DNA of 63,541 nucleotides, filler included. It is 8 parts of 8 records of this genome, joined end to end, with 100 filler letters (N's around TTAATTAATTAA, not from the genome) between each part and the next. Parts side by side here need not be neighbours in the genome. Positions count along the whole stretch, not along the records: positions 1 to 6,030 come from SRR31147125_15923; 7 more parts are not named here. The stretch is one strand, 5' to 3'. Shown here piece by piece: positions 1 through 17,767 of the stretch. The notes beneath the pieces were generated by a model. The model made no database searches, had not been told where the DNA came from, and saw only the letters and a list, made by a program, of their open reading frames with translations. Each line of letters begins with the position of its first letter. Position 1 is the stretch's first letter. Both the position numbers and the translations under genes were made by a program.

Positions 1-75
1 TTTTTTTAAGCCTGATATCATAATATTAACTTAAGAGAATTTAAAGGAAAACAAAATTTAAGGAGGAATACACTT

Positions 76-1141
76 ATGATTGATTATTTGACTGAGTACT
101 TTAATAAAAATGAAATTGATTTCTCACAACATGATTTAAATTCACATCAAATCAAGGAGATCAGCAAAAACAGGTTTAGTTTTGACACAATGCAATTTAA
201 TAAAGACGAAAAAAATAGTTTTTTTCTATTTCACCCATATTTGCATAAAGTAAAAGATGAGCTCTTAGAGAAAAATCTCAATGTTAAAAATCACAAAAAA
301 ATAGCTAAAAAAGATTTAGAAACTAGATCCTCTGTGTTCATTATTTCTGATGAAGTTGCAAATCATAAATCAATCTACATTGGTTATCAAGATACAAGAA
401 AATTTTTAAAAATTAATACTTCAGAATTAAATAAATTTAATAATTTAGAGATCGCTACAATTTCTGAGAATAAGAAATACAAAACAAGAATTCGTCAAGT
501 TTTTCCAGAATCTGAGAAGAAAAATATAGGTAATTATAAAAAGTGTTTTCTCGGGTTTAGCGTAGGTAATGACGAATTTAAAGGGGAAAAATTACATGCT
601 ATGCTTAAGTTAATTGATAGCCGCTTTGACGATTGTGTTATTTTCGTGGGAGATTATCTATACAGAAATACGTTGCAAATTTTAAATAAAAATATCTCTA
701 GTGAAAAAGAAGCATTAGAAGAGTGTATCTTGATGGGAAATGATCTGGAAAATAACTTAAACCTAATGTGCTCTTCTTTTTCTATACAATTTACTATAAT
801 GAGATCATCGGACATGATAAGAAGTAAAAAATATTATGAATATTTAAATATATTTCAGGAATTATTTAAATCAAATCGAAAATTTCATGCCTCAGCTTTT
901 AGATTTTCAAAAATTTTTATCACGTAATTTTAAACATACCCAAATGAATATAGATTTATCTATTAAATATTTATTAGAAGAATTAGCATTTTTTGCTTTA
1001 CTTATTGAAAAGGGATATCACGTTATGTTATATCCTGGTGATTTAGAGTGCTTAATTGATATTGCAAGTAATAAGATTGATGGAGCTCCAAAAATATATG
1101 ATAATTTTATAAAAGTTGTTTTAAAAAATTGTGCTAGATAA
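76..1141 (+). CDS. tRNA-dependent cyclodipeptide synthase (CDPS, XYP subfamily) with an N-terminal YbaK/ProX-like domain; split by one frameshift at ~908-918
   Basis: ORF 76-927 has CFLGFSVGN (catalytic Ser, codon 559-561) and F-x2-CVIFVGD-x3-R-x-TL. The overlapping ORF 887-1141 supplies S-x-x-YLLEELAFF and MLYPG (the Y-P of XYP). An AGGAGG RBS lies at 61-66. The frames switch at a CAAAAATTTTT run. Confidence 0.85.
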
Positions 1142-1152
1142 ATCGATTTAAA

Positions 1153-1201
1153 ATAAAAAATAGTTTTCATTCAAAATATTGAAATGAAAACTATTTTTTA
1201 T
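1153..1201. terminator. AT-rich hairpin, probable (bidirectional) intrinsic terminator after the CDPS gene
   Basis: Perfect 19-bp inverted repeat ATAAAAAATAGTTTTCATT (1153-1171) / AATGAAAACTATTTTTTAT (1183-1201). Confidence 0.65.
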
Positions 1202-1305
1202 ATACGCTTTTATTCCCTATTTCATATAAAGTCGTTTGATTTTCAAAACTTTATGTTGTAATATTCTATAAGGGTATTGCATAAAAATTAAAAGGGGTGA
1301 AATCA

Positions 1306-2466
1306 ATGTCAAAAAAATTTCAAATTGATGAGCAAGGATTATATGATATTCTAAATGGTTCTACTTTTTTAGCTAGTGGTGGCGGCGGTTCCATTGATAA
1401 TGGAGCTGACTTGATCAAAGAAATTCTAAAAGATAAAAAATGGAAAGGATTTATAACTTGTGTTTCTTCTCAAAAAATCCATAACGAAGATAACTTAGGA
1501 GTTGTTTGTGCTCCAGCAGCTCCAAAAGCACTAAAAAAATATGGTCTTGGACAATCTCCAATAAAGTCATTTGAACTCATGGAAAAAATGTACAATAATA
1601 CAAATCCTTTTTCATCAAAAAAGAAAAAAGGATTCAAATATAATTATGCTATTCCAATTGAAACAGGTTGCGTTGCCCATTTAATGGCTATTCAAATTGC
1701 CATGAAAAAGGGAATTAAGGTATTAGATGCTGATGGCGCGGGAAGAGCTTATCCAAAAATGTCAATGAATTCTTTTGCTAATTCAGGAATTCCAATAGGA
1801 CCTATGTCTCTTGCTACAGAAAATTCGGTTAAACAAGGTGGAGCCGATTTTTTATTAAATATAAAAAATGCAGATAATGTTGACCAAATATTTAGAAACC
1901 TTTTAGGTACAGATGAATTTAATAATGTTTCTTCTTCGACTTGCTTCTCAATGAATGGAAAAGAAGTCAAAAGAGAAGGAGTTGTAATTAATAATACTAT
2001 TTCCAGAGCAAGAAAATTAGGAAAAATACTTCGTAAATCAAAAGGCCATGCTGTTAAAGATGTTATGACTTTTTTAAATAATGAGTTTGGATTTGCGACA
2101 ATACTCATACAAGGAAAAGTAACAGAAATAATTCAAACTGTCCAAGGTGGATTTGATGTTGGGATTATAAAGGTTAGCGATGGAAAAAAAGAAATTGAAA
2201 TTTTAAATCAAAATGAAAATATTCTTGCTTTATCAAATCAAAAAAACCATCCACTCGCAATGGGCCCCGATTTAATTTGTTATATGGATGAAGAAGGAAA
2301 TGTTTATAGTAATCCTGATTTAAAAAAAGATAAAAATATTGTTGTCATCGCTGTTAAAGCAGATAAAGAATATAACACTAAATATATTCAAAATGAATTT
2401 AAGGGAATCTTTGAAGGCTTAAATTACTTCGGACCATATATCCCAGTTAATAAATTAAACAAATAG
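1306..2466 (+). CDS. DUF917 family protein (thiohydantoin desulfurase/desulfhydrase-like)
   Basis: Motifs G-x3-LASGGGG, PIETG, DADGAGRAYP, QNEN and GPDLIC. ATG at 1306 follows a GGGGTG SD; alternative GTG start at 1297. Confidence 0.85.
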   Translation: MSKKFQIDEQGLYDILNGSTFLASGGGGSIDNGADLIKEILKDKKWKGFITCVSSQKIHNEDNLGVVCAPAAPKALKKYGLGQSPIKSFELMEKMYNNTNPFSSKKKKGFKYNYAIPIETGCVAHLMAIQIAMKKGIKVLDADGAGRAYPKMSMNSFANSGIPIGPMSLATENSVKQGGADFLLNIKNADNVDQIFRNLLGTDEFNNVSSSTCFSMNGKEVKREGVVINNTISRARKLGKILRKSKGHAVKDVMTFLNNEFGFATILIQGKVTEIIQTVQGGFDVGIIKVSDGKKEIEILNQNENILALSNQKNHPLAMGPDLICYMDEEGNVYSNPDLKKDKNIVVIAVKADKEYNTKYIQNEFKGIFEGLNYFGPYIPVNKLNK

Positions 2467-2477
2467 GAGCTGATAAA

Positions 2478-3218
2478 ATGAGTAAAATTAAACTAAGAAT
2501 TATTGTTCCTGCTAATACAGACACTTTTAACAAATATATATATGATAGTGCTTTAGCTGTTGTCCCCCAAAATGTTAAACTTGACATAGAGAATATAACT
2601 GGAGGAAATGATTGTATAGAGTGTCGATATAACCTTATGCAAAATGCACCGTATGTAATCGAGGCTGTAAAAAAGGCTAAAAAAGATGGAATCGATGGAA
2701 TCTTTGTATCTGATATGGATTTTTGTGGAGTTGAAGTCGCAAGAGAAATTGTTAATATTCCTGTAATAGGAGGTTTTAGACCAAGTGCATTTACAGCAAT
2801 GTCTTTAGCACAAAAATTTTCAATTATTACTATAACAGAGACAATCATGGATTACCAAATAGAGCATATCAGAGCTTTCGGAATAACACAAAACTTTGCG
2901 TCGATTAGAGCAACAAATATACCGGTTAATATTTTGGCTGGCATGTATACCAATCCACAGTATAGAGGAGAGGTTATTGAAAAGGTCACTGCCGAAAGTC
3001 TAAAAGCTATAAAAAAAGATGGCGCAGATGCAATAATATTTGGGTGCACGGGATTTGTTGATATTGCAGCTGAGGTTGCAACAAACCTAAAAGAGCAGGG
3101 ATATAATATTCCAGTATTGGATCCTAACAAAATTGCCATAAATTTTTTATATAATATTGTAAGCAATAATCTTATGCAAAGCCGATTAAGCTATTTTAAA
3201 TATAAACCGAGTAAATAA
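2478..3218 (+). CDS. Asp/Glu/hydantoin (allantoin) racemase family protein
   Basis: IIVPANT N-terminus, G-x3-AREIVNIPVIG, KFSIIT and DGADAIIFGCTGF. AGGAG RBS; starts 11 nt after the DUF917 stop. Confidence 0.85.
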   Translation: MSKIKLRIIVPANTDTFNKYIYDSALAVVPQNVKLDIENITGGNDCIECRYNLMQNAPYVIEAVKKAKKDGIDGIFVSDMDFCGVEVAREIVNIPVIGGFRPSAFTAMSLAQKFSIITITETIMDYQIEHIRAFGITQNFASIRATNIPVNILAGMYTNPQYRGEVIEKVTAESLKAIKKDGADAIIFGCTGFVDIAAEVATNLKEQGYNIPVLDPNKIAINFLYNIVSNNLMQSRLSYFKYKPSK

Positions 3219-3296
3219 AGTTAACCTTGTAAAGGTGCGGAGCTACTCTCCTCAACCTTAGAAATCTCATTAATTATTATTTGTTATCAGAGTGGA

Positions 3297-6030
3297 GTGA
3301 GTAAGATGCATCCAAATAAAAAAAGATTCCTCCTATTTCTATTAATCATTATTAATTTTACAAGTTTTTCTAAATCAAACATTTGGTTTAAACAAGAATT
3401 GAGTACAGAAAGTTTCAACATAATGGTTACTCAAGATAAAGATGGGTTTCTCCTTTTTGCAACCACCGATGGTATCATCAAATATGATGGCTATAATAAG
3501 CATATCATATCAGCAGGAGAAAACTCAATTTCTTCAAATTTAGTTCCCTCTATATTTGTTGACAGTGAGGGACTTATATGGATTGCTACATGGAATGGAT
3601 TAAACCTTTATAATAAAACAGATAAAAGTTTTACTTCTTTTTCAGCAATAGAAAATGACGAAAGTACTATAAGTAGTAGTAAATTTAATTGGGCTCCAAA
3701 ATTGATTGCAGAAGACAGTGATGGCGAAATTTGGATTGGAACTCAATATGGATTAAATAAATATAACAAGAAAAGTAAAAAGTTTATTAGATATGGAAAA
3801 AATCTTCCCGCAATTAGCGATGATAATATTTGGTGCCTTATTGCAGACAAAAATAACAATATATGGGTTGGGACGCAAGAAGGAGGACTGCTAAAGTATA
3901 ATAAGAAAAACGATTCATTTACACTTTACAAACATAACCCTTTAAGGCCTAATGAATCTATTGGAAAAGGTACTGTTTATTCAATTCTTGAAGATAACAA
4001 CGGTTTTATTTGGGTTGGAACAAGTGAAGGAGGATTAACAAGGCTTAATCCAAATACATTGCAATATAAAAATTATAGACACAATCCCAATAATCCTAAT
4101 AGCCTCGCTTCAAATGAAGTTTTCTCTCTAATGGAAGATCGGCAAAACAATATTTGGATCGGTCGAAACTACAGTTCATCTTTTGGTATTGAAAAGTTCA
4201 CACCACACCTAGAGAAATTCGAGGTATATTCAGAAAACAAAGCTAGCGGCCTTAGTGGAAATAATTATATGACAAGTTTTCAAGATAGTTCAGGAACAAT
4301 ATGGTTTCCAAATAATTTAGGAGAAGTTGATAAGTTTGACCCAAAAGCTCCACAATTTAAACAATTTTATCAATTAAAAACAGTTTTATCAACCTATGAA
4401 GATAAATATAATAACTTATGGTTTGCTACTGCAACAGAGGGCTTAATTAAGTATAGCGATGGAGAGTATACATTCTATCAGCCTAATAGCAATGAACAAA
4501 ACTCAATTCCAAGAAGTTATATTTTTTCAGCTATAGAAGATGCTGATGGACTCTTTTGGATAACGACTGATGATGGCAAGTTATGTATATTTAATAGAGA
4601 GACTGAAAAGATTGATAAAATATTTGAAAACAGCATTATTAAAACTGCTGCACGAGATTTGACGCAAGATAAATTTGATAAAAATATCTTTTGGTTTGGT
4701 AGTGAAGGTGATGGATTTTTTAAATTTAATAAAGAGAGCGGGGAATTCAAGCAATATAAAAATAATCCCAAAGATGAAAATAGTATTTCCAATAACATTA
4801 TTCAAAATTTATATCAAGACGAAAATGGAATTCTATGGATTCCAACACATGGTGGTGGTTTAAATCGATTCAACCGAGAAACTGAAACTTTTACCGCATT
4901 CAAAAAAAATAATTTAAACCAAAATTCAATTAGCGGAAACATGATCTTTGATTGCTTTATTGATTCTAAAAATAGATTTTGGATTACTACAGATGATGGT
5001 GGCTTAAATCAGTTTATTGTTAAGAAAAACAAGTTCATAAAATATGGCGTTAATAATGGTTTTCATACTGAAGCTCTTAGATCTATTATTGAAGATGAGT
5101 TTGGTTATCTTTGGATTACATCCAATTCTGGATTGTATAAATTTGATCCCTCTACAGAAAAAGTTTTAAATATCTATTCTGAAAAAGACGGATTAGTAGG
5201 TAGTCAATTTAATTTTTTTGTTACAACAACTAAAAAATTAAAGGATAATAGTATAATCGTTACAACAACAAAAGGAGTCAATAGATTTCATCCTAAAAAT
5301 ATTTTAAAAAATAACTATCAACCTCCACTAGTTCTTACCTCACTAACTCACAACGGGGAGGATTTGGTTCCAGATAAAGCTCCAGAGGTTATAAAAGAGA
5401 TTACTTTACATTGGCCGGAGAGTAGCTTTACTTTCGAATACGCCGCTCTAAACTATACTCTACCAGAGAAGAGTAAGTATAAATATTTCTTAGAAGGATT
5501 TGATACAAAATGGTACGATGCTGGGTATAGGCGATTTGGTCGTTACTCTAAGCTTCCTGGGGGGCATTACACTCTTCGGATAAAAGGAACAAATAACGAT
5601 GGGATATGGAGTGACCAAGAAGCAGTATTAAAGGTTACTATTATTCCTGCATTCTGGCAGACTACAGTATTTAAGTTTCTAATTGTTCTTTTAGTTATTC
5701 TATTAGGATTTTTAATCTCATACTTAAGAATAAAAAGTGTAAAGGATAGAAATATTGAACTTGAAAATCTAGTTGAAATAAGAACACACGAATTGATTAA
5801 GAAAAAAGATGAATTAAATGAAAAAAACGTTAAATTAGTTGATAGTATTCAATATGCTAAAAGAATACAGGAAGTTATTTTACCAACAGAAGAGCAATTT
5901 AGAAATAGCTTTGAAGATGTTATGCTTTTCTACAAAGCTAAAGATATTGTTTCTGGAGATTTCTTCTGGCTTAATGAATGGAATGATAATATATTCGTTG
6001 TAGTCGCAGATTGTACTGGGCACGGAGTCC
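3297..6030 (+). CDS. Sensor protein: two-component-regulator beta-propeller + Y_Y_Y domain + TM + SpoIIE/PP2C phosphatase (3'-truncated)
   Basis: Signal peptide; repeated D-x-x-G-x-IWIGT-x-x-GL blades; Y_Y_Y (YKYFLEGFD...YSKLPGGHYTLRIKGTNNDGIW); TM helix; SIQYAKRIQ, KDIVSGDFFW and ADCTGHGV at the contig end. Confidence 0.9.
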
Positions 6031-6130
6031 NNNNNNNNNNNNNNNNNNNNNNNNNNNNNNNNNNNNNNNNNNNNTTAATTAATTAANNNNNNNNNNNNNN
6101 NNNNNNNNNNNNNNNNNNNNNNNNNNNNNN
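6031..6130. other. Artificial contig-joining spacer
   Basis: 100 nt of N around TTAATTAATTAA (stops in all six frames). Confidence 0.97.
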
Positions 6131-6132
6131 TA

Positions 6133-7518
6133 TTTGTTTTTAGTGCATGCGACGATTATCTGGATTTAGCTCCTGTTTCGGAGATTGGTGAGAATGGATT
6201 TTACACCAACGAAAGTGAAATTGACGCGGCAGTAGTTGCTATTTACGACGGATTACAGGAGATTCCTGAAGTTGAATTTGCAGTAACTGATTTACGTTCA
6301 GACAATGGACGCACTAAAACAAGCGAAGGCTCTTGGGCTCAATTCGAAAATATGAATGTAGACCCAACCAATGCTACTGTTTCAGAATATTGGTCGTATA
6401 ACTATAACACAATCTTTAGAGCAAACAAAGTGCTCGAAAATATAGAGGTACTTGAAGAAGGAACTTCAAAATCGCAATTCGAAGGCGAAGCTAAATTTGT
6501 AAGGGCTTTATGTCATTTTAATTTGGTGCGCAACTTCGGCGATGTGCCAATTATCACACAAATTGTTCAGGCTACCGACGAAGAATTTTTCGACAGAGAT
6601 CCGGTAGCGAGTGTTTATGCTACTATTGAATCTGATTTAACAGATGCTATTTCGATGCTTCCCGGTCGTTCTGATATTGGCGAAGGAAGAGCAACAGTAG
6701 CTGCTGCGCAAACTCTATTGGCAAAAATTTATTTAGAACTTGGCGAATATGGTTCGGCAAAGACATTGCTCGATGCTGTTATTACCAATTCTGATTATGG
6801 TTTAATGGATAACTATAATGATGTTTTTTATGTTGAAAATAATAAAGAAGTAATTTTTAATATTCAATACATTAACGATAATGCAAACGATAGCCAGAAC
6901 TTTTCGTATAGCATGACATGGGCAGGAAGAGCCGGTGGATTAAATTATCCAACCAACGATTTGGTTGCTTTGGTTCATCCTGCTGCAGTAAGCGGAACTT
7001 CGCAAGTAGAAGTTGATGCTGCTGATGTTGCTGACCAGAGATTCTCAACATTATTCTACTTCGAGCCTTTGGCAAACAACCGATACGAATGTGGAAAATG
7101 GAGAACCGATGCTGCCAGCCCTGAAGAAGGTGGAGGTAACGACTGGATTGTATTACGTTACGGCGATGTATTGCTTATGCGTGTTGAAGCTATTTTGGCA
7201 GGAGGAACATCAACATCTGATGGTACGGCTTTAGGCGATTTTAATTCAATTAGAACCCGTGCCGGTTTGGAAGGAGTAACATCTATTACCAAACAAATGC
7301 TTCTTGATGAAAGACGTGTTGAAATGGCTTTCGAAAATTACCGTATTGCTGATCTTATTCGTTTTGGTGAAGCTGTTAGTGTTATGACTGCTTATGCTAC
7401 ATTACCGACAGAAGATGCCGGAGCAAGTTATAGTTTTACTTCTGAAGATTTGTTATTACCTATCCCACAAAGGGAAACGAATTTATATGATGGATTGACT
7501 CAAAATCCTGGTTACTAG
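6133..7518 (+). CDS. susD: RagB/SusD family nutrient-uptake lipoprotein (5'-truncated)
   Basis: The frame is open from the contig start through a lipobox FSAC-DDYLDLAP. Also EAKFVRALCHFNLVRNFGDVP, LRYGDVLL, ERRVEMAFE and a terminal QNPGY. Confidence 0.92.
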   Translation, partial: FVFSACDDYLDLAPVSEIGENGFYTNESEIDAAVVAIYDGLQEIPEVEFAVTDLRSDNGRTKTSEGSWAQFENMNVDPTNATVSEYWSYNYNTIFRANKVLENIEVLEEGTSKSQFEGEAKFVRALCHFNLVRNFGDVPIITQIVQATDEEFFDRDPVASVYATIESDLTDAISMLPGRSDIGEGRATVAAAQTLLAKIYLELGEYGSAKTLLDAVITNSDYGLMDNYNDVFYVENNKEVIFNIQYINDNANDSQNFSYSMTWAGRAGGLNYPTNDLVALVHPAAVSGTSQVEVDAADVADQRFSTLFYFEPLANNRYECGKWRTDAASPEEGGGNDWIVLRYGDVLLMRVEAILAGGTSTSDGTALGDFNSIRTRAGLEGVTSITKQMLLDERRVEMAFENYRIADLIRFGEAVSVMTAYATLPTEDAGASYSFTSEDLLLPIPQRETNLYDGLTQNPGY

Positions 7519-7548: not shown

Positions 7549-7580
7549 GAAAGGGGATGGTGCTCCCGTCCCCTTTTTTC
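7549..7580 (+). terminator. Intrinsic terminator/attenuator after susD
   Basis: AAGGGGATGG / CCGTCCCCTT hairpin followed by a T-tract. Confidence 0.7.
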
Positions 7581-7610
7581 TTTATTAATCACACTCTAAT
7601 AAATTTCACG

Positions 7611-8546
7611 ATGAAATCAAGAAGGTCGTTTATTAAACTAACATCGCTTGCTTCAACTGCGGCACTCTCTGGATTAAATCCCTTGTTTGCAGGAAATTAC
7701 ACTCCTGCTCCGATGGCAAGAAAAGTTTATATTTTTTCGAAACATTTGCAGTGGCTCGGCTTCGAAAAGATGGCGAAAACGGCACAGAAAATTGGTTTCG
7801 ATGGAGTTGATTTAACGGTCCGCCCCAAAGGGCATGTTTTACCCGAAAGAGTAAAAGAAGACCTTCCCAAAGCTGTTCGGACCATAAAAAATGCCGGCCT
7901 TTTAGCCGACCGAATGACCACTGCAATTACCAACCCCGACGATGCATTAACAATTGATATTTTGGAAACCGCTGCAAAGCTTGGAATTAAAAATTACCGC
8001 CTTGGCTGGTTTTCTTACAATCAATCTATTTCGATAGAACAAAACATTGAAAATTTTAATTCGAAACTTAAAAAGTTAGCTGAATTGAATAAAGATTTGG
8101 GATTAACTGCAGCCTACCAGAACCATGCCGGCGAAATGGCCGGAAGCCCTGTTTGGGATATGGGAATGATGCTTGAAGGAATTGAGCCTGAATTTGTTGG
8201 AATACGTTACGATATTCGCCATGCAACAGTTGAAGGAGGAACTGCCTGGCCACTTGGTATGAAATTTTTAGCGAATAAAATTAATAGCTTCGATATAAAA
8301 GACTTTATCTGGAAAGAACTGGAAGGGAAATGGAAAACAAACAATGTGCCGCTTGGAGAAGGCATGGTTGATTTCGAGCGCTACTTCCAAATACTTAACG
8401 AATTAAAAATCAAGGGCAATTTTACCCTTCATTTGGAATATCCTATAGGTGGAGCTGAGCATGGGAAAAGCGAACTAAGCTGTTCGCCCGACACTGTTAT
8501 TTCTGCCATGAAAAAAGACTTAAGCACCCTACGCAATTTCTTTTAA
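7611..8546 (+). CDS. Tat-exported xylose-isomerase-like TIM barrel (AP endonuclease 2 / sugar phosphate isomerase-epimerase family)
   Basis: MKSRRSFIK twin-arginine signal; GFDGVDLTVRPKGHV, YQNHAG, YDIRHA, IKDF, PLGEGMVD and LHLEY. Confidence 0.85.
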   Translation: MKSRRSFIKLTSLASTAALSGLNPLFAGNYTPAPMARKVYIFSKHLQWLGFEKMAKTAQKIGFDGVDLTVRPKGHVLPERVKEDLPKAVRTIKNAGLLADRMTTAITNPDDALTIDILETAAKLGIKNYRLGWFSYNQSISIEQNIENFNSKLKKLAELNKDLGLTAAYQNHAGEMAGSPVWDMGMMLEGIEPEFVGIRYDIRHATVEGGTAWPLGMKFLANKINSFDIKDFIWKELEGKWKTNNVPLGEGMVDFERYFQILNELKIKGNFTLHLEYPIGGAEHGKSELSCSPDTVISAMKKDLSTLRNFF

Positions 8547-8561
8547 AAGAACGAAAATTTA

Positions 8562-10806
8562 ATGATTAAAAAGCTTTTATATATCTGCCTGTTTATGTTG
8601 CCCTTTTCTTTGTTTGCGCAAAGTACAATGGTTCCGTTCAAACATGTGCCAGGCAACAAAGAAATTATTGATTTACTCGATGTTGATTACAGCCCCGAAC
8701 TAAAAGCCATACAAAACAAATACAACAAGGGCTTACAAAAAGAAGCTCTTGATGAGTTGGCCTTATATTTTAAAGAGCGTTTTTCTGAACGCTATTTCTT
8801 CGATTGGAAAAACTTCGAAAACCGCTTTGCTGAATACAATCTAATGTATTCGGGGCGAGAAAAATTTCATGCAAAAGAAGCTGCCAAACACCTCGAATTA
8901 TACCCGGCAACTACACAATGGAAAATTGGTTTCGAAAATCTGAAAGGCGAAACAGTTACTTCTTATCCTTACCGCCATTTAACACGCCAGCACAAAGCCG
9001 GAAGTATCGCTTTTTTATATCACTATAAAAACGATAAAAAATATTTGGATTACATTCCCGGGCAGGCAGCCTCGTTAAACGCTGCGTTCAACAACAATCA
9101 ATTCGAAATTATTGAAGACGGCAACGGAGCTTACGAAGTTTACCGCGCCGGAAACCGTGTTTGGCACTGGTTACAAGTTCATCAAATACTTTTGGCTTCT
9201 GATGAATATTCTACAGATCAGCAATTGGAAATGATTCGCACAATGTTGCATACTGCAGCAAAATTTTACCATCACAATCCAAAATACACCAACGGAAACC
9301 ACCAAACTCGTGGAATGAGTGCTTTGGCCATATTGGCTTTTCTTTTCCCCGAAATAAAAGGAGCCGACCAGTGGAAAGAACGTTCGCTTCAACGTTTGGA
9401 AGAGCACCTCGAAAAAGAAATTTATGCCGACGGTTTTCAGTTCGAGCGTGGTGTGCATTATCACATCGACGATATTGAAAATTATTTTTACCCCTACCAG
9501 TTGGCAAAACTGAATAATATTGAATTAAACCCGCTTTGGGAAACAAGAATAAAAGGGCTTTTCGATGTATTGCTGAAAATTGCAATGCCAAACAAAAAAG
9601 TTCCGGTTTTACAAGACGACACCGATTCGCCCTGGGCAGAATACAACGTAATTGATAACACCATGGCTTTGGGAGCCGTTCTTTTTGGCAATCCGGAATA
9701 CGTTTATTTTGCCTCATCGAAAGTGGCATCGCACTATTACTGGTTTTTAACAACCGGGCAATTGGCGCGTTTAAAATCGGTGAAGAAAAAGGCGCCGAAA
9801 ATCGGATCGTGTAATTTACCCGAAACCGGTTACTACGTTACGCGTAACGGTTGGGACCAAGACGATGTGTACATGATTATTTCTGCCGGAATTACGCCAC
9901 AGAAACCAGATCACCAGCACGGCGACATGTTGGGAATTCAGGCATACGCTTACGGAAATATAATGTTACCCAATTACCAGGTGCGCTACTATCTAAAAGA
10001 TTTGCCCGAGTTTAAAAATTCGTGGGTAAAAAATGTGGCTTTGGTCGATTCAATTCCACAAGGTAAAAACTGGAAAGGCAACAAAGGCGGAAGTGGTTTT
10101 GGCAAATTTAAAACCTTTCCAATTCCTGAAGTTATTGGAAAAATACCGATGATTTTGATTTGTTCATAGGAACACACGATGGAAATAAAGACATTGAAAC
10201 AGCAACTTTCCGCACAATAATTTTTGTGAAAGACGAATTTTGGATTGTTAAGGACAACTTCATCTCCAACAACACAGAACATACTACACAACAAGTGTGG
10301 CAAGGCCATTACGGTGTGCACAAAGAAGGCAAGCACATCCGTTCTGTATTTCCGAATGGCGCCGGACTTGAAATCATTCAGTTGGGCGAATCTGCTGATA
10401 AAATCACTTTTGCATCGGCACGTGGAAAAGGCAGAGGTGTTTTCGAAAAAAATTCCGGAACGAAACTTCGTGGACAACAATTTTATTTCCATTTAAAGAT
10501 TTTGAAGAACGCCTGACAATGGACGATTACAGCAATTTTAAAGCGAACGACTGGAAAGTTGTTTCAGCAGAAAATTGTCCTGAAAAACTAAAAACCAATG
10601 CACAGCAAATCGTTTACAAAAAACAGAATTACCTTCTTATCGGAGCATCAGAAATAACGATTGAAGGATCAGAATTATCAATGAATAAAAAGTCTGAATT
10701 GTGGATAAAGGTTATAGAAAATGGATTAGAAATAACCAACTGCGGAATTCAGACAGTAGAGATAAATAAGCAGAGTGTTAAACCGGGCGAAAGAATAAAA
10801 TTATAA
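8562..10806 (+). CDS. Heparinase II/III-family polysaccharide lyase; one gene split by two frameshifts (~10140, ~10450)
   Basis: GNHQTRG, DGFQFERGVHYH, ETGYYVTRNGW and HQHGDMLG. ORFs 8562-10169, 10160-10516 and 10519-10806 join across A-runs to give continuous protein-like sequence. Confidence 0.8.
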
Positions 10807-12080
10807 TGAGCGAAACAAAAGCAAATAAAAGTCTTTTACAAAAACTAATTGCCATTGTATTGTCTTTTGGCCCCGGTATTTTTGCTATTGGTTACACTAT
10901 TGGTACGGGCAGCGTAACATCTATGATTGTTGCCGGTAGTACGTTCGGAATGCAGTTACTTTGGGTGTTGTTACTCAGCTGTATTTTTTCGGGCGTGTTA
11001 ATTTTCACCTACGGAAAATATACGCTGGTAACAGGCGAAACAGCTTTGTTTGGCTTTAAAAACCACCTAAAATTCGGCAAGTTAGTAGCCATTCTCATAA
11101 TTATTGGAATTACCTTCGGGCAGTGGAATTCGCTTTCCGGAATACTTGGTATTTCTGCCAATATGATTTACGAAATTGTAGCTTTATACTATCCTTCAAT
11201 CAGTAACTCTGAATACGAAATTGTGCTGGGAATTGCCATTGTAATTATCGTAACATTCTACGGTTTATTAATGGTGGGAAAATACACATTCTTCGAAAAG
11301 GTATTGGTAATTTTTGTTACCATTATGGGCCTTTCATTTATTGCTTCGCTGTTTTTTGTATTTCCGCAACCAACAGAAATTATTGGAGGTTTAATTCCGT
11401 CGATACCCGATGTGCAAGGCGGACAAATGCTGACTGCTGCATTTGTGGGAACAACCATGGCAGCCGCAACTTTCCTTTCGCGACCTCTTTTTGTGATGGG
11501 AAAAGGCTGGACAATAAAAGATTTGAAAAAACAAAAAAGCGATTCAATTACAGCAGCAATTTTGGTATTTGTAATTAGCAGTTCGATTATGGCGGTAGCT
11601 TGCGGAGCTTTGTACCAGGAAGGTAAAGTGGTAACAAAAGTACTCGACATGGTGAACACGCTCGAACCGATTGCCGGCCGTTTTGCACTTACCATTTTCG
11701 TTTTCGGAACCTTAAGTGCCGGGCTTTCATCAATCTTTCCTTGTTTAATGATTGCACCACTTTTACTTGCCGATTACCAGGAAGGGAAACTTGATACCAA
11801 TTCAAAACAATTCAGAATTGTAACTGCAGTGGCCGGAGTAGTGGCATTGTTAGTTCCAATTTTGGGCGAAAATCCTATTCAGGCACAAATACTTACACAG
11901 GTTTTTAATGTGTTTGTTTTGCCACTGGTAATTGTCGGAATCATCATTTTGGCAAACAACAAGAAACGCATGGGCGAGCATAAAATTAATTGGTTTGTAA
12001 ATAGTGGTTTAGTGTTGGCTCTCATTTTTTCGCTGGTAATTTCGTACAACGGAGCCATTGCTGTAATAAACTATTTTTAA
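10806..12080 (+). CDS. NRAMP-related transporter
   Basis: About 11 hydrophobic segments; FGPG-x5-TIGTGS-x5-AG-x-x-FG-x-x-LLW and FVGTT motifs. Confidence 0.8.
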   Translation: MSETKANKSLLQKLIAIVLSFGPGIFAIGYTIGTGSVTSMIVAGSTFGMQLLWVLLLSCIFSGVLIFTYGKYTLVTGETALFGFKNHLKFGKLVAILIIIGITFGQWNSLSGILGISANMIYEIVALYYPSISNSEYEIVLGIAIVIIVTFYGLLMVGKYTFFEKVLVIFVTIMGLSFIASLFFVFPQPTEIIGGLIPSIPDVQGGQMLTAAFVGTTMAAATFLSRPLFVMGKGWTIKDLKKQKSDSITAAILVFVISSSIMAVACGALYQEGKVVTKVLDMVNTLEPIAGRFALTIFVFGTLSAGLSSIFPCLMIAPLLLADYQEGKLDTNSKQFRIVTAVAGVVALLVPILGENPIQAQILTQVFNVFVLPLVIVGIIILANNKKRMGEHKINWFVNSGLVLALIFSLVISYNGAIAVINYF

Positions 12081-12089
12081 GACAATTAG

Positions 12090-13772
12090 ATGACGAAATA
12101 CGCATTCATAATATTAATCGTACTGCGGGTTGCTTTGTCTTCAAACGCTGAAGTTTATAAAGTAAATTCTGAAAGTCAGCTTGAAGATGCTGTTACAGGG
12201 ATTATGCCGGGCGATACTGTTTTACTGGCAGCACAAAACTGGAACGATGTTGAGCTGGAATTTAAAGGCGAAGGCACAGAAAGTCTACCAATTGTTTTTG
12301 GCGCTGAAACACCGGGGCAAACCATTTTTACCGGCAACAGCCGAATTGAAATTAGTGGCAACTGGCTGGTGGTGCGCGATTTTATTTTCAAAGAAGGTGA
12401 TATTACCGACGATGGCTCAATAATTGCTTTTCGAACCAGCTCGTCTACTTTGGCACATAATTGCCGCCTTACAAATGTTGCTATCGAAAATTATAATCCG
12501 GCAAACGGAAGCCTCGACACAAAATACGTTTCGCTTTACGGAACTTATAACCGCGTTGACCACTGCAGCTTTTCAGGAAAAACAAACGCAGGAGCCACTT
12601 TTGTTGTTTGGCTCGACGAAACACCCGATTATCATTTAATTGACCATAATCATTTTGGTCCGCGCGAAGATTTAGGCGAAAACGGTGGCGAAACTATCCG
12701 CATTGGAACCAGCGATTGGGAAAGCTTCAATTCGAATTGTGTGGTTGAATTTAACCTGTTTGACGAGTGCGATGGTGAGATTGAAATCATTTCAAATAAA
12801 TCGGTTGGTAATCATTACCGATACAACACTTTCGATAACTGCGAAGGAACGCTAACGCTGCGTCATGGCTCGGATTGCCGGGTGTATGGCAATTACTTTT
12901 TTGGCAACGATGAAAAAAATTGCGGAGGCATCCGAATCATTGGTCCCGGACACAGAGTGTTTAATAATTATCTCGAAAATTTGGAAGGAACATCTTACCG
13001 GGCAGCCATTTGTTTAATGAATGGAGTACCCAATTCTCCGGCAAACCGCTATCGCCAGATAGATGATGCGCAAGTTGGTTATAATACCATTATAAATTGT
13101 AAAGAGCCTTTTGCAGTTGGGGCAGGCGTGAGTGATGAATTGTCGCTTGCACCAATAAATTCGTTGATAGAAAATAATATGGTTGTTTCGAAAGAAAGTC
13201 GCGATTTGGTAAACGAATACAGTTCGGCAAACGGAGTAAGCTGGAAGGGAATTTTTACCGATGCTGAAAATATTGGTATCACAGCCGATGGTTTTATTCA
13301 AACTGAATTGCCAATGGTTTTAAGCGGAAAAATGCAAACGCCAACCAGCGAAAATCCTGTAATTGGAGCAGCACAATCAGGAGCATTCGATACTTTAATG
13401 GTTGATATTGACGGGCAAAGCCGCCCCGAAACTGCCAAAGACGCAGGCTGCGACCAGTTATCGGACGAAGGAAAAACAATTGTTCCTTTAACAATATTGG
13501 ATGTTGGCGCCAACTACGAGGTAACTACTTCTGCCCAAATATCAGAAACACCCGAATATAATATTTACATAAATAATGGAACCTTAAACGTAAGTTTCGG
13601 GAATGAAGGAAAACGAACTGTATCAATGTTTTCATTGAATGGAAAGTTGCTTTCAACCTCCCAGGTTTATGCACGGAATTATACGCAAACAGTCGGCCAA
13701 CTTCCACGCTTTTTTATTGTAGAAGTTCGCGAAGAAGCAAGTAGATACACAGTAAAACTTATTCAACAATAA
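12090..13772 (+). CDS. PL6 (chondroitinase-B-like beta-helix) alginate lyase with a C-terminal T9SS-like domain
   Basis: PGDTV, NRVDHC, NGGETIRIGTS, DGEIEIISNKS and GTLTLRHG; signal peptide; C-terminal FSLNGK...VKLI. Confidence 0.9.
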   Translation: MTKYAFIILIVLRVALSSNAEVYKVNSESQLEDAVTGIMPGDTVLLAAQNWNDVELEFKGEGTESLPIVFGAETPGQTIFTGNSRIEISGNWLVVRDFIFKEGDITDDGSIIAFRTSSSTLAHNCRLTNVAIENYNPANGSLDTKYVSLYGTYNRVDHCSFSGKTNAGATFVVWLDETPDYHLIDHNHFGPREDLGENGGETIRIGTSDWESFNSNCVVEFNLFDECDGEIEIISNKSVGNHYRYNTFDNCEGTLTLRHGSDCRVYGNYFFGNDEKNCGGIRIIGPGHRVFNNYLENLEGTSYRAAICLMNGVPNSPANRYRQIDDAQVGYNTIINCKEPFAVGAGVSDELSLAPINSLIENNMVVSKESRDLVNEYSSANGVSWKGIFTDAENIGITADGFIQTELPMVLSGKMQTPTSENPVIGAAQSGAFDTLMVDIDGQSRPETAKDAGCDQLSDEGKTIVPLTILDVGANYEVTTSAQISETPEYNIYINNGTLNVSFGNEGKRTVSMFSLNGKLLSTSQVYARNYTQTVGQLPRFFIVEVREEASRYTVKLIQQ

Positions 13773-13777
13773 ATTAA

Positions 13778-15976
13778 ATGAAACGCATACAAACATATTT
13801 ATTTCTTTTATTGTCGGTAGTGCTGTTTTCTTGCCAGCAAGAAAAAGAAATTGCGAGCAACGATGGCTTTCCAAAGCTGATTCTGCAAAAATCGGCTGTG
13901 TCGGAGATTGTTGACGGACTGGAAAAATATCCAATGCTTACAACATCGTTCGAAAATGCCAAAACCATTGCCGACAAAGGAATGGAAGCCGGAATTGTGG
14001 TGCCTTTCCCAAAAGATCCGGGTGGTGGTTACACGCACGAAAAACACAAGCAGAATTACCTTGAAATGTACAATGCCGGGGTAGTTTATCAGCTAACAAA
14101 AGATGAAAAATACGCAGCGTTTGTACGCGATATGCTAAATAATTACGCGAAACTTTATCCAACGCTTGGCATTCACCCAATGCAGAAAAACCAAGCGTCC
14201 GGGAAACTGTTTTGGCAGGGATTAAACGAATCGGTGTGGTTGGTTTATACCATTCAGGCTTACGATTGTATTTACGATTTTCTTTCTGCCGTAGAACGGA
14301 CAAATATTGAAGATAACCTGTTCAAAGAAGTAGTTGAGTTTTTTACAGTTGAAGACAAGTATTCGTTCGACCGCGTGCACAACCACGGAACATGGGCTGT
14401 TGCCGGAGTAGGAATGACCGGAATGGTTTTAGGCGATTCGCTGTTGGTACAAAAAGCTTTGTACAGCACAAAATTAGATGGTTCGGGCGGTTTCCTAAAA
14501 CAAATTGATGAGCTGTTTTCGCCTGACGGATATTATGCTGAAGGACCGTATTACCAGCGTTATGCTTTGATGCCGTTTATCGTTTTTGCACAGGCATTGG
14601 AAAATAATCTGCCTGAATTAAAAATATTCGAATACAAAGGAGGAGTTCTTCCAAAAGCGGTGAACACGGTTTTGCAATTAACCAACTCCGATGGTAAATT
14701 TTACCCGATTAACGACGCAATTAAAGATAAATCATGGTTAACGGCTGAATTAGTTTTCGGAACAGACATTGTTTATAAATTAACCGAAAACAAAAACCTG
14801 CTCGACGTTGCGCAATACCACGGTAAAGTAATGTTAAGTGCCGAAGGATTAGCAGTTGCAAAAGCAATTGCTGATGGAGAAACCGAAAGTTTTGTGCGTA
14901 AACCGATGATTATAAAAGATGGTGCAAACGGCGATAAAGGCGGCTTGGCATTACTTCGTTTGGGCGATAGCGAAAACCAAACTTCGGTATTATTTAAATT
15001 TGCTTCGCAAGGAATGGGCCACGGACACTTCGACCGCTTGGGCATTAATCTTTACGATAAAGGAGAAGAGATTATTCCGGATTACGGTGCAGCACGTTTT
15101 CTGAATGTTGCGGCTAAAGAAGGAGGCAGATATCTTCCTGAAAATAAAACCTGGGGAAAACATACCATTGCACACAATACTTTGGTAATTAACGAACAAA
15201 GTAACTTTAACGGCAAACTAAAAGCAGCCGAGGCAAGCAATCCGACATTGGTTTTTGCCGACCTCAATAATCCTGCTGTGCAAGTTGTTTCGGCTACCGA
15301 CGAAAATTGCTACCAAGGTGCATCGCTGAACCGCACTTTAGCTTTGTTCGAAGTTGAAGGAAGAACCTATTTAGTCGACTTATTTAATGTCAAAAATAAA
15401 ACAGCGGGCCAATACGATTTGCCGGTGTATTTTAATGGACAGATTTTAGATGCCAACTTCGAATATTCGAGGTTGACCGAATATAAAATTTTAGGTAATG
15501 ACTTTGGTTACCAGCATTTAATTGTGGATGCCAAAGCCACCAACCTTCCTTCAACAGCACGTATAACCTGGATGAAGGAGAAAGGTTTTTACACGCTGAC
15601 CACTCTGGCAGACTCTGACACCGAATTTTTTGTTACCCGCCTGGGTGCCAACGACCCGAATTATAATTTACGCAACCAAATGGGCATGGTGCTACGCTTT
15701 CCAAAGTCGAAAGACAAAAAGTTGCTGACGGTTTACGAAATGCACGGGAACTACAACCCGGTAAGCGAGGCGGTTTTGCATTCAGAAGGTTCGGTTAAAA
15801 ATCTTCAATTAATTGAAGGTGACAATGAAAAAGTGGCTGTTCTGCTTGAATTAAAAAACGAAAAGACAATACAACTCTTGCTCGATTTGAAATTTGCTGA
15901 TTCAGAAACAAATTCTTTACAGGTTGATGGCAAGGAAATAAGTTGGAGTGGAAATTATAGAGTTAAAATGGATTGA
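13778..15976 (+). CDS. PL17 oligoalginate lyase (lipoprotein)
   Basis: Lipobox LFSC; GGGYTHEKHK, LNESVWL, HNHGTW, EGPYYQRYA, GMGHGHFD and DYGAARFLN. Confidence 0.92.
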   Translation: MKRIQTYLFLLLSVVLFSCQQEKEIASNDGFPKLILQKSAVSEIVDGLEKYPMLTTSFENAKTIADKGMEAGIVVPFPKDPGGGYTHEKHKQNYLEMYNAGVVYQLTKDEKYAAFVRDMLNNYAKLYPTLGIHPMQKNQASGKLFWQGLNESVWLVYTIQAYDCIYDFLSAVERTNIEDNLFKEVVEFFTVEDKYSFDRVHNHGTWAVAGVGMTGMVLGDSLLVQKALYSTKLDGSGGFLKQIDELFSPDGYYAEGPYYQRYALMPFIVFAQALENNLPELKIFEYKGGVLPKAVNTVLQLTNSDGKFYPINDAIKDKSWLTAELVFGTDIVYKLTENKNLLDVAQYHGKVMLSAEGLAVAKAIADGETESFVRKPMIIKDGANGDKGGLALLRLGDSENQTSVLFKFASQGMGHGHFDRLGINLYDKGEEIIPDYGAARFLNVAAKEGGRYLPENKTWGKHTIAHNTLVINEQSNFNGKLKAAEASNPTLVFADLNNPAVQVVSATDENCYQGASLNRTLALFEVEGRTYLVDLFNVKNKTAGQYDLPVYFNGQILDANFEYSRLTEYKILGNDFGYQHLIVDAKATNLPSTARITWMKEKGFYTLTTLADSDTEFFVTRLGANDPNYNLRNQMGMVLRFPKSKDKKLLTVYEMHGNYNPVSEAVLHSEGSVKNLQLIEGDNEKVAVLLELKNEKTIQLLLDLKFADSETNSLQVDGKEISWSGNYRVKMD

Positions 15977-15983
15977 AAACGCA

Positions 15984-16011
15984 GTCACACTTCGACTACG
16001 CTCAGACTGAC
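15984..16011. repeat. REP-like intergenic element (CTTCGACTACGCTCAG..TGAC type)
   Basis: GTCACACTTCGACTACGCTCAGACTGAC with GTCA/TGAC ends; resembles repeats widespread in Bacteroidota. Single copy here. Confidence 0.5.
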
Positions 16012-16048
16012 AGGATAAAAAACAAGTATAAACTAAAAATAAAAAATT

Positions 16049-16414
16049 ATGGCAAGCGAAAAATTTATTAAAAACAGTGAGAATTGGGAAGAGCTTGGTG
16101 GTGGCGTATCGCGTCAGTTTCAGGGATGGGACAACCAGATTATGATGGTGAAAGTAAAGTTTGAAAAAGGTGCAGAAGGTGCTCCTCACCAACACTTTCA
16201 TACACAAGCAACTTATTGTGCAGCCGGTAAATTCGAATTTACCATCGATGGAGAGAAAAGCTTGGTTGAAGCTGGAGAAGGCGTTTATATTGCTCCTAAC
16301 TTATTACACGGAGCTCTATGTTTAGAGGCAGGTATTCTAATCGATGTTTTCAGCCCGGTTCGCGAAGATTTCCTTGATGGAACCGGAGTTTCTTATTTCG
16401 GAGATAAAAAGTAG
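16049..16414 (+). CDS. kdgF: Cupin, KdgF-like (unsaturated uronate ring-opening)
   Basis: GVSRQ, HQHFHTQ, HGALCLEAG and IDVFSPVREDF; located between PL17 and the uronate MFS. Confidence 0.85.
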   Translation: MASEKFIKNSENWEELGGGVSRQFQGWDNQIMMVKVKFEKGAEGAPHQHFHTQATYCAAGKFEFTIDGEKSLVEAGEGVYIAPNLLHGALCLEAGILIDVFSPVREDFLDGTGVSYFGDKK

Positions 16415-16467
16415 TATCATAAAAATGGGACATAACAAGGCTTTTGCCAGCTCTTGTTGCTTCGATT

Positions 16468-16508
16468 CTCCCCTTTCTTTGGGGAGATGTCCAAAGGACA
16501 GAGGGGTT
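16468..16508. repeat. REP-like double-hairpin intergenic element
   Basis: CTCCCC-TTTCTTT-GGGGAG followed by TGTCC-AAA-GGACA-GAGGGG. Confidence 0.45.
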
Positions 16509-16528
16509 TTCCCAGCAAAAAATAAATT

Positions 16529-17667
16529 ATGAAATTAAAAGGATTACGTTGGTGGATTATCGGGCTGATTGGCCTGGCAACCGTCATAAATTATATCGAC
16601 AGAAGTGCTTTGGCAATTATGTGGCCAAGTATTTCAGAAGATTTAGGAATGACCAAAAACGACTATGCTCTTATATTGAATGTATTCATGATTGCATATG
16701 CCGTTGGACAATCGGTTTCCGGAAAGTTATTTGATAAAATCGGAACCCGAATGGGATATGTTGTTGTGATAATGGTTTGGGGACTATCGTCATTCTTCCA
16801 TTCAATGGCACGAGGATTATTATCGTTTAGCTTTTTACGCGTAACTCTTGGTTTAGGAGAGGCCGGTAACTGGCCCGGTGCAGCAAAAAGTAATGCCGAA
16901 TGGTTTCCGATTAAAGAGCGTGCTATTGCACAGGGAATCTTTAATGCCGGTGCTTCAGTAGGTTCGGTAATAGCTCCGCCGTTAATTGCGCTTTTATGGG
17001 CAGCCTTTGGTTGGAAAATAACCTTTATGTTTGTTGGTTCTTTTGGTTTGTTATGGTTAATTCCCTGGTTGTTAATAAACCGTGCGGGAGTTGATAAACA
17101 CCCTTGGCTAACCGATTTGGAGCGCGACTACATTAAAAAAGGACAGCACAAATCGGAACAAAAAAGCGACGCAAAAGGCAAAAGGATAGGTCAAATTCTT
17201 TCATACAAAGAATCGTGGGCTGTACTAATTGGGCGATTTTTTCTGGAACCAATATGGTGGCTGTTTGTGGGTTGGATGCCATTATACCTTGCCGATGTTT
17301 ATGGATTTAATGTAAAAGAAATTGGATTCTTTGCCTGGGTTCCGTATGTGGGCGCAGCTGTTGGTAGTATTGGCGGTGGTTGGTTTTCCGGAAGTTTAAT
17401 GACAAAAGGAAATTCGGTTAACCGTTCTCGTAAAACAACCATTGTTATCGGTGGAATTATAATGTTTATAGGTTTAATTGCAACAGTGCTGTTTGCCAAT
17501 ACAGCAGAAAAATTTGTGGCAATTGTTGCCTTTGTGTTGTTCGGATTCCAATTTGCAATTAGCAATGTACAAACTATTCCCAGCGACTTATTCAGTGGAA
17601 AATCGGTTGGCTCGTTAGCAGGACTTGGAGGTACTGTTGGAGTATTCTCTGTTATTATTATGAACTT
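16529..17667 (+). CDS. exuT: MFS hexuronate transporter (ExuT-like, ACS family), 3'-truncated
   Basis: LRWWII, INYIDR, EAGNWPG, EWFP-x-KERA-x-AQGIFN-x-G and RFFLEPIWW. Confidence 0.85.
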
Positions 17668-17767
17668 NNNNNNNNNNNNNNNNNNNNNNNNNNNNNNNNN
17701 NNNNNNNNNNNTTAATTAATTAANNNNNNNNNNNNNNNNNNNNNNNNNNNNNNNNNNNNNNNNNNNN
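17668..17767. other. Artificial contig-joining spacer
   Basis: N-run with TTAATTAATTAA. Confidence 0.97.

Follow-up and report, generated by a model that had tools for sequence, protein, structure and literature searches.

Cyclodipeptide synthases (CDPSs) are small enzymes that must draw aminoacyl-tRNAs from translation, and how they recognise and compete for these substrates is still being worked out. SsBcmA (PDB 9j61), described in PMC11580168 as the XYP-type cyclo(Ile-Leu) synthase of bicyclomycin biosynthesis, is the best PDB sequence match to the enzyme considered here. Section 14 of a 2018 family overview (PMC5816076) lists only C-terminal fusions, with methyltransferase, P450 and ABC-transporter partners and with a C-terminal unknown domain in Legionellaceae; these show that CDPSs work inside multi-domain proteins. 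Here we describe a CDPS gene at positions 76..1141 (plus strand) of a 63,541-nucleotide stretch of DNA (the window, eight parts of one genome joined end to end with filler letters), whose product carries at its N terminus a domain with the predicted fold of the YbaK/ProX/ProRS INS editing proteins. What is new here is that a probable pseudo-editing domain is built into a CDPS; the window shows this domain at its most eroded.

Our search of the full-text literature, with subscription journals and supplements outside it, found no description of a fusion between a YbaK-like or editing domain and a CDPS, in keeping with the impression recorded in the initial annotation, which was made from the sequence alone. 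Nor do passages of reviews from 2022 and 2026 mention it. In its canonical form it is surely displayed in domain-architecture databases.

A cyclodipeptide synthase with an extra N-terminal domain

Two overlapping open reading frames (ORFs) occupy 76..1141 on the plus strand: ORF1 at 76..927 (283 aa) and ORF2 at 887..1141 (84 aa), the latter in the next frame. Together they are one gene, which encodes an XYP-type CDPS with an extra N-terminal domain of ~127 residues. Its features are as follows.

60..66, plus strand: Shine-Dalgarno-like AAGGAGG, 9 nt ahead of the ATG at 76 (from the sequence and from an upstream-motif scan of all long ORFs)
76..456, plus strand: degenerate N-terminal domain of predicted YbaK/ProX fold, residues 1–127 (AF2, Foldseek, VIA-align, hhalign)
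457..913, plus strand: CDPS domain, first part (same frame as 76), including Ser162 (559–561) in C-F-L-G-F-S-V-G-N (partial matches to TIGR04539 and Pfam CDPS; PDB sequence matches 9j61 and 5ocd)
909..913, plus strand: A5 homopolymer, A7 in a read-derived contig; apparent frameshift site (read-derived contig, frame test)
914..1141, plus strand: CDPS domain, second part, same frame as 887 (TIGR04539 profile positions 150–208; read-through against the family CDPS profile)
968–970 and 980–982, plus strand: Tyr and Glu of Y-L-L-E-E (motif 968–982; from the sequence)
1031–1036, plus strand: Tyr-Pro of the XYP signature (Y-P-G 1031–1039; L-Y-P-G 1028–1039; from the sequence)
1139–1141, plus strand: stop codon of the CDPS gene (from the sequence)
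1153..1201, plus strand: A/U-rich hairpin of 22 bp with a terminal U run, immediately 3' of the stop (RNA fold)

The CDPS identity was supported by profiles and by structures. TIGR04539, the NCBIfam profile for tRNA-dependent cyclodipeptide synthases, matched residues 151–280 of ORF1 over profile positions 14–143 (E 5e-7, 29.5 bits) and residues 16–67 of ORF2 over positions 150–208 (E 3.2e-5, 23.6 bits), each piece singly falling below the 45-bit cutoff. Pfam CDPS gave a weak partial match to ORF1 only, and the nearest homologue, P0001, lies above the cutoff of that family (PF16715; 48 bits vs 27). A PDB sequence search with ORF1 returned two matches only, both CDPSs (9j61, E 5e-13; 5ocd, E 1.9e-9), and both begin at residue 129–132. 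When the two halves were read through with an X at the break, 221 of the 225 positions of a hidden Markov model (HMM) built from the CDPS domain of the fused homologues were matched (204 bits). The catalytic set is present, with Ser162 in G-F-S, Tyr and Glu in Y-L-L-E-E and Tyr in L-Y-P-G (S37, Y178, E182 and Y202 of AlbC), and window residues could be equated with S43, Y185 and E189 of SsBcmA through the ORF1–9j61 alignment and the residue list of PMC11580168. Following the subfamily definition given in that paper, Tyr-Pro replaces Tyr-His at AlbC positions 202–203, as in the L-Y-P-G of the window; position 40 of the window CDPS is Asn, like N46 of SsBcmA. The window retains each of the nine residues (P, G, S, D, Y, E, A, Y, P) whose columns do not vary among 28 fused homologues. 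As judged from its sequence, the window CDPS is XYP-type with a full catalytic set and is a predicted cyclodipeptide synthase.

The substrate pockets were compared by mapping the SsBcmA P1 residues F39, G41, L71, G73, C125, I192, F193 and M204 (residue list of PMC11580168) via the 9j61 alignment and the family alignment. P1 of the window reads FGFGSFFM against FGLGCIFM in SsBcmA, with five of eight residues identical and with changes from Leu to Phe, Cys to Ser and Ile to Phe; P2 reads F-?-F-R-G-L-E, the second position coinciding with the break. The pattern FGLGC[IV]F[MF], which is the P1 of SsBcmA and of many fused relatives, appears in Table 2 of PMC5816076 as the cLI/cLL group motif. Bulky pocket residues (F at AlbC 33, F at 186 and M at 200) had led the initial annotation to propose Gly or Ala as substrates, a proposal that is not supported, as the same residues stand in the Leu-accepting P1 of SsBcmA and belong to the Leu-pocket signature of BcmA-type enzymes. 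Of the known signatures, the Leu/Ile-type (BcmA-like) one comes nearest to the pockets, and the product is therefore better guessed to be a hydrophobic cyclodipeptide than cGly/cAla. The two extra Phe residues (Leu to Phe and Ile to Phe) could narrow P1, and the product is therefore not predictable.

The region ahead of the CDPS domain (residues 1–127) matched no Pfam or NCBIfam family, and its nature emerged from structure prediction. An AlphaFold2 (AF2) model of residues 1–120 (alignment A2, 28 homologues) had a predicted local distance difference test score (pLDDT) of 89.3 and a predicted template-modelling score (pTM) of 0.79. Foldseek against the PDB gave Haemophilus influenzae YbaK (1dbx_A) as the best match (E 8.6e-6, TMq 0.68), and ranks 1–35 held only YbaK, ProX, ProXp-ala, lpg1207, APE2540 and similar proteins, ProRS INS, the YbaK-like domains of SadB and Maqu_0641, and design scaffolds; unrelated folds started at E 0.6. 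VIA-align, which is independent of Foldseek and compared 48,161 representative chains, placed 1dbu_A first (Z 10.0, root-mean-square deviation (rmsd) 3.8, 118/120 aligned), followed by 1wdv_B (Z 9.6) and 3op6_B (Z 8.5). All eight chains at Z ≥ 6 belong to this superfamily or are derived from it, and the next unrelated fold scored Z 3.7. The models thus show residues 1–127 adopting a predicted YbaK/ProX/INS fold. When only the N-domains were compared in hhalign, the window with P0001, P0002, P0008 and P0003 aligned with nine Pfam-positive domains over 110 columns (92.6% probability, E 4.6e-7), and this profile comparison shows, indirectly, that the N-domain of the window is homologous to the bona fide tRNA_edit domains fused to related CDPSs. 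P0001, the best homologue (349 aa, E 2.2e-35), aligns from residue 1, and together with the confident fold this means that residues 1–127 are not chance sequence.

To assess the break between the frames we used a contig of 10,357 bases (word depth 29.9) from one public sequencing run that contains 99% of the sampled words of window 1–3300. The contig spans 1..3300 and differs from the window solely by AA inserted behind 908, which turns the A5 run at 909–913 into A7. With A7 the frame from 76 is open for 355 codons; in a frame test, inserts of 0, 1, 3 or 4 A yielded 283–291 codons, and only +2 or +5 A gave an ORF of 355/356 codons. The run is possibly the same sample as the window, so that A7 represents a second, independent assembly and not an independent sample. 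P0001, 349 residues long, is likewise an uninterrupted protein. The apparent frameshift is very probably an assembly or homopolymer error (A5 for A7), owing to which the window gene would be miscalled as two fragments.

These data uphold the central claim of the initial annotation, a CDPS fused to a degenerate YbaK/ProX-like domain, as fold, homologues, CDPS profiles and CDPS structures agree; the motifs that it named (G-F-S-V-G-N, YLLEE and YPG) are all present, its C-terminal part matches CDPS profiles, and the chimeric join that it had considered is contradicted by a contig running through the gene. The frameshift that it wished to repair is there in the window, which reads A5, and is absent from the read-derived contig, so that no repair is needed. 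Our preferred reading, which we consider probable as a whole, is that the protein is intact, with 355 residues, and consists of an N-terminal YbaK/ProX-fold domain (1–127) and a complete XYP-type CDPS with all catalytic residues, the role left to the N-domain being non-catalytic.

The fusion family and its editing site

An exhaustive HMMER search returned 302 proteins at E ≤ 0.001. Among the best 150 of these, 28 have an N-terminal extension of ~90–170 residues that aligns with that of the window, as does one fragment, P0149; the fused homologues that the initial annotation had asked for therefore exist, some of them with a Pfam-significant tRNA_edit domain. In the 28, tRNA_edit was above cutoff in nine (including P0012 with 63 bits, P0075 with 57 and P0061 with 48), below cutoff in six and unlisted in 13, and the nearest relatives of the window (P0001, P0002, P0008 and P0003) are among these 13. 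None of the 799 candidates from a word-indexed homologue search with ORF1 reached E 0.01. When one genome per species was scanned with an 8-sequence alignment as the query, the fusion proved to be encoded at 11 of 58 CDPS loci, in Anabaena sp. WFMT, three Nostoc, a Prochloraceae metagenome-assembled genome (MAG), three Methylococcaceae/Methylomonas MAGs, a proteobacterial MAG, a Symploca MAG and a Zetaproteobacteria MAG. The tRNA_edit domain passes Pfam in six of the eight fused loci scanned. No free-standing YbaK-like ORF was found in the flanks of the 47 unfused CDPS loci, and metagenome contig scans with two alignments found no close relatives of the window protein. The family bears on annotation, as eroded N-domains escape Pfam and the fused proteins are named as plain CDPSs, their source annotation being merely 'tRNA-dependent cyclodipeptide synthase'.

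Other long N-terminal extensions occur in P0027, P0105, P0017, P0053, P0038, P0115 and L041, where the CDPS domain starts at 156–472 in proteins of 454–1137 aa. These extensions are unmatched by the YbaK-like HMM, and further undescribed CDPS fusions may exist.

A FastTree phylogeny of 179 CDPS domains (local supports only, midpoint root) placed all 39 fused rows on one 130-row side, interleaved with single-domain enzymes, and paired the window with P0001 (support 95). The two proteins are 44% identical in the CDPS domain and 18% identical in the N-domain. They are the most eroded forms of the family, ~25–30 residues shorter than canonical N-domains.

We then located the editing residues in the family alignment. 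The Lys column was set by the A-K-T of P0075, which aligns with the A-K-T of ProRS INS (5znj chain position 279, by counting) and of lpg1207; we take this Lys to be the one that editing requires, Lys46 in YbaK and Lys279 in E. coli ProRS. In the window the column falls, by alignment, on Asp37 or Thr38, and strand 33–41 is without any Lys. The G-x3-P loop is deleted between residues ~81 and 85, a gap of ~17–22 columns at which P0012, P0075 and the loci L001–L009 carry P-x-x-E-x-G-T-x-P-P-x-G. Alignment thereby confirms the absence of both hallmarks, which the initial annotation had noted. Glu or Asp occupies the Lys column in 16 of 40 fused rows, all with an intact G-T-x-P-P-x-G-type loop (15 distinct sequences, L007 being P0074); examples are P0012, P0023, P0037, P0046, P0061, P0074, P0087 and loci L001–L009. 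Apart from the Lys-keeping members treated below, the remaining fused proteins have other residues at this column, and the alignment of eroded members is uncertain. On these alignments the change from Lys to Glu/Asp is a specific, recurrent substitution and not random decay. For the window, we infer that the domain would be unable to deacylate aminoacyl-tRNA and is a pseudo-enzyme. The family offers a graded series, in which Lys and loop are kept, Lys is changed to Glu/Asp, or the loop is deleted, as material on what an editing fold does once it no longer edits.

Possible roles of the N-terminal domain

The ancestor of the N-domain would have been a trans-editing protein of the lpg1207 type that became fused to a CDPS. 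In most loop-keeping members the domain would have been disarmed by the change of Lys to Glu/Asp, and in the lineage of the window the loop would subsequently have been lost too. Attached to a CDPS, a deacylase that was still active would break down the substrate of its partner, and hydrolysis would therefore be selected against; the recurrent Lys-to-Glu/Asp change suggests that this is what happened after tethering to an enzyme that needs intact aminoacyl-tRNA. The role most likely left to the disarmed domain is non-catalytic: it may pack rigidly on the CDPS and assist in docking or orienting the aminoacyl-tRNA at its acceptor end, or it may simply stabilise the enzyme. A full-length AF2 model of P0001 with both domains (pLDDT 94.9, pTM 0.89) suggests, by the confidence of the model and not by measurement, that the two domains have a fixed packing. 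A complex prediction for P0001 residues 1–124 with residues 128–349 gave no answer (score 0.00, alignments unused, fold of the partner uncertain). The initial annotation put forward a hypothetical role in capturing, selecting or channelling aminoacyl-tRNA for the CDPS. Our own best guess, still short of an even chance, is that the N-domain acts as an adaptor that receives the substrate's acceptor end without catalysis. A broader version, which we regard as rather unlikely, is that one fusion with an lpg1207-type protein founded a whole branch of XYP CDPSs, that the disarmed domain is a non-hydrolytic receiver of aminoacyl-CCA through which the synthase competes with EF-Tu and which helps to steer pocket entry, and that the single-domain relatives, BcmA included, are secondary losses. 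If true, this would be the first editing domain turned into the substrate-delivery module of a natural-product enzyme.

Several observations weigh against our preferred reading. Many close relatives lack the N-domain, and the presence or absence of fusion requires 14 gains or losses on the tree, or eight if only starred branches are counted. Some 'plain' tree rows are truncated gene calls (P0032, for example, starts with the tail of the N-domain), so that the loss count is overstated; one origin is neither shown nor excluded. Over 741 pairs the median pairwise identity is 18% in the N-domain and 36% in the CDPS domain, an approximately twofold difference in evolutionary rate that fits a relic as well as an adaptor. 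Pfam tRNA_edit (PF04073) gave no match to the window protein even at E up to 1, and the homology rests on profiles and the predicted fold. Lys is retained in eight of the 40 fused proteins (P0075, P0064 and P0068 with the loop; P0004, P0008, P0107, P0140 and L025 without it), and a dead domain is therefore no rule for the whole family. The net charge of the N-domain is zero or negative in 32 of 40 members (+2 in the window), and its contact with tRNA is something that we only infer. Finally, the window may itself have been assembled from the run that provides the evidence for A7, and minority variants are concealed in contigs.

The strongest alternative is that the N-domain is an evolutionary relic, kept by its packing on the CDPS for folding or solubility and without a role in the handling of tRNA. 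The loss of both active-site hallmarks, the roughly twofold divergence relative to the CDPS domain, the near-neutral charge and the absence of the domain from related CDPSs are all consistent with this, and a fixed interface, as suggested by the high pTM when both domains are modelled, could make the domain structurally indispensable. Against it, the domain preserves its fold at high predicted confidence despite 11–18% identity to relatives and persists in at least 39 distinct CDPSs from several phyla, and the specific replacement of Lys by Glu/Asp in loop-keeping members suggests selection for a changed function. We hold the relic to be somewhat unlikely in itself, and nearly as likely as the adaptor because the domain is not basic and the pocket loop of the window is gone.

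Reuse of the YbaK fold as a ligand-binding module, as in signalling proteins, would make the N-domain a small-molecule sensor that regulates the CDPS. Two YbaK-like domains, one from SadB (9qzk) and one from a putative signal-transduction protein (3mem), do occur among the structural matches, but these two are weaker than the matches to true editing proteins, and the loop that lines the ligand pocket in the family is deleted in the window. Signalling genes stand beside fused CDPS genes (PAS-GGDEF-EAL in Methylococcaceae, a hybrid histidine kinase at L025 and STAND NTPases in Nostocaceae), and a Reg_prop/Y_Y_Y regulator lies 2.2 kb from the gene in the window; the neighbourhoods nonetheless vary by lineage. 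A sensor is, on balance, improbable.

A real frameshift, making the gene either a pseudogene or one that is switched off and on by slippage at the A run, is more improbable still. The window itself reads A5, a homopolymer in a coding region can slip, and minority variants would not be shown by contigs; on the other side stand the A7 of the read-derived contig at its depth of 29.9, with nothing else differing over 3300 bases, the retention of all conserved CDPS residues in both halves and the lack of any other stop. A run of five to seven A is short for a contingency locus. A further ORF (10160–10516), inspected as a possible second split gene and hence a sign of error-prone assembly, matched no Pfam family. 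That the N-domain is a still-active trans-editing deacylase proofreading the aminoacyl-tRNA pool for the CDPS is very improbable for the window, which has no Lys in the equivalent strand, no G-x3-P loop and no tRNA_edit match, even if P0075, P0064 and P0068, with Lys and loop in place, may be active and P0075 is close to free-standing lpg1207 (E 3.7e-33).

Under the preferred reading, an intact CDPS with a non-catalytic N-domain, nature has fused a CDPS to a domain whose ancestors bind the substrate end of aminoacyl-tRNA, and the fusion could give engineers a handle on substrate delivery. PDB entries of 2026 (9iam, 9iaj, 9i5m and 9gun) cover Nbra-CDPS with aminoacylated RNA microhelices and a putative Porphyromonas gingivalis CDPS, and would be useful templates for placing the fused N-domain relative to tRNA.

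Neighbouring genes and comparison with known systems

The hairpin at 1153..1201 has a folding energy of −19.6 kcal/mol (z −8.3), with none of 200 shuffles equally stable, and is probably an intrinsic terminator. Because it follows the stop directly, the CDPS gene looks monocistronic and separately terminated. A consensus terminator scan of 1–3400 listed none; it demands three G-C pairs and so missed this A/U-rich hairpin.

Directly downstream are genes for a DUF917/S-Me-THD-like protein (1306–2466, plus strand; Pfam 2.6e-30 and 5.7e-24) and an Asp/Glu/hydantoin racemase (2478–3218, plus strand; Pfam 1.1e-28). The same DUF917-like and racemase pair is adjacent on a Vibrio plasmid without any CDPS, and a Peribacillus plasmid combines DUF917 with a hydantoinase/oxoprolinase and a cytosine permease; the pair is probably a separate module for a cyclic amide. 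Homologues of the DUF917-like, racemase and Y_Y_Y proteins were found near none of the 58 CDPS loci, and megablast of window 1–6000 against plasmids gave no match. The first three genes (1–3300) have the lowest G+C of the window (26–33%, vs about 36–44% elsewhere), and each carries a well-placed Shine-Dalgarno-like motif, a feature missing from the majority of the polysaccharide-utilisation genes and shared by a few other window genes. The segment 1–3300 may have been acquired from another lineage.

The Reg_prop/Y_Y_Y regulator (926–929 aa, within 3306–7518) has no kinase, receiver or DNA-binding domain in Pfam. A SusD-like gene at 6352–7518 begins at position 67 of the SusD-like_3 profile, with no SusC gene before it, and the 266-base gap at 6086–6352 may mark the junction of a rearrangement or a deletion. 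Positions 7557–17719 are taken up by a polysaccharide-lyase cluster of the kind usual in Bacteroidota, with genes for a xylose-isomerase-like TIM barrel, a heparinase II/III-like protein, an Nramp transporter, a chondroitinase-B-like protein, an alginate lyase with a heparinase C-terminal domain, a cupin and a major facilitator superfamily (MFS) transporter.

Elsewhere in the family, no classical tailoring genes adjoin the fused CDPS loci L001, L004, L005, L006, L007, L009 and L025. The Nostocaceae fused genes follow genes for a SIR2_2-metallophosphatase protein and an nSTAND1-WD40 NTPase. In methanotrophs the fused gene adjoins that of a PAS-GGDEF-EAL protein and, at two of three loci, lies between it and peptide-type ABC permeases, while at L025 it lies between a hybrid histidine kinase and a sodium:alanine symporter. 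These neighbours are hints of signalling or conflict roles for the product.

The CDPS part of the window protein is close to SsBcmA. Both share the fold and the catalytic residues, namely the Ser of G-x-S, the Tyr and Glu of Y-L-L-E-E, and Tyr-Pro, and the CDPS part of the P0001 model superposes on 9j61 with a TM score of 0.94 and an rmsd of 2.0. They differ in architecture, as SsBcmA and the characterised CDPSs covered in section 14 of PMC5816076 are single-domain or have C-terminal tailoring domains, whereas the window protein has an N-terminal YbaK-fold domain; unlike in the BcmA system, no bicyclomycin-type tailoring genes lie near the window CDPS gene.

The N-domain shares its predicted fold with YbaK, ProX, ProXp-ala and ProRS INS (PF04073) over 118 of 120 modelled residues. 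Those proteins possess the Lys and the G-x3-P loop; the window domain has neither, nor a Pfam match. The INS domain of ProRS is joined to a synthetase, and the window domain to an enzyme that consumes aminoacyl-tRNA. By sequence, the closest solved relative of the canonical fused N-domains is lpg1207 of Legionella pneumophila (3op6), a free-standing YbaK-like protein that aligns with P0012 (E 3.5e-30) and P0075 (E 3.7e-33, as above) over ~150 residues end to end and also matches the window model structurally. It keeps Lys and loop, whereas the window domain is fused and keeps neither.

The fusions of Nostoc, Anabaena, Prochloraceae and Methylococcaceae (L001–L009) agree with the window in domain order, side of the CDPS tree and N-domain profile match. 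Their N-domains pass Pfam and keep a G-T-x-P-P-x-G-type loop, with Glu/Asp at the Lys column, whereas that of the window is eroded. The C-terminal partners of other CDPSs act on the product, whereas the partner in the window stands at the N terminus and has its origin in a substrate-acting protein.

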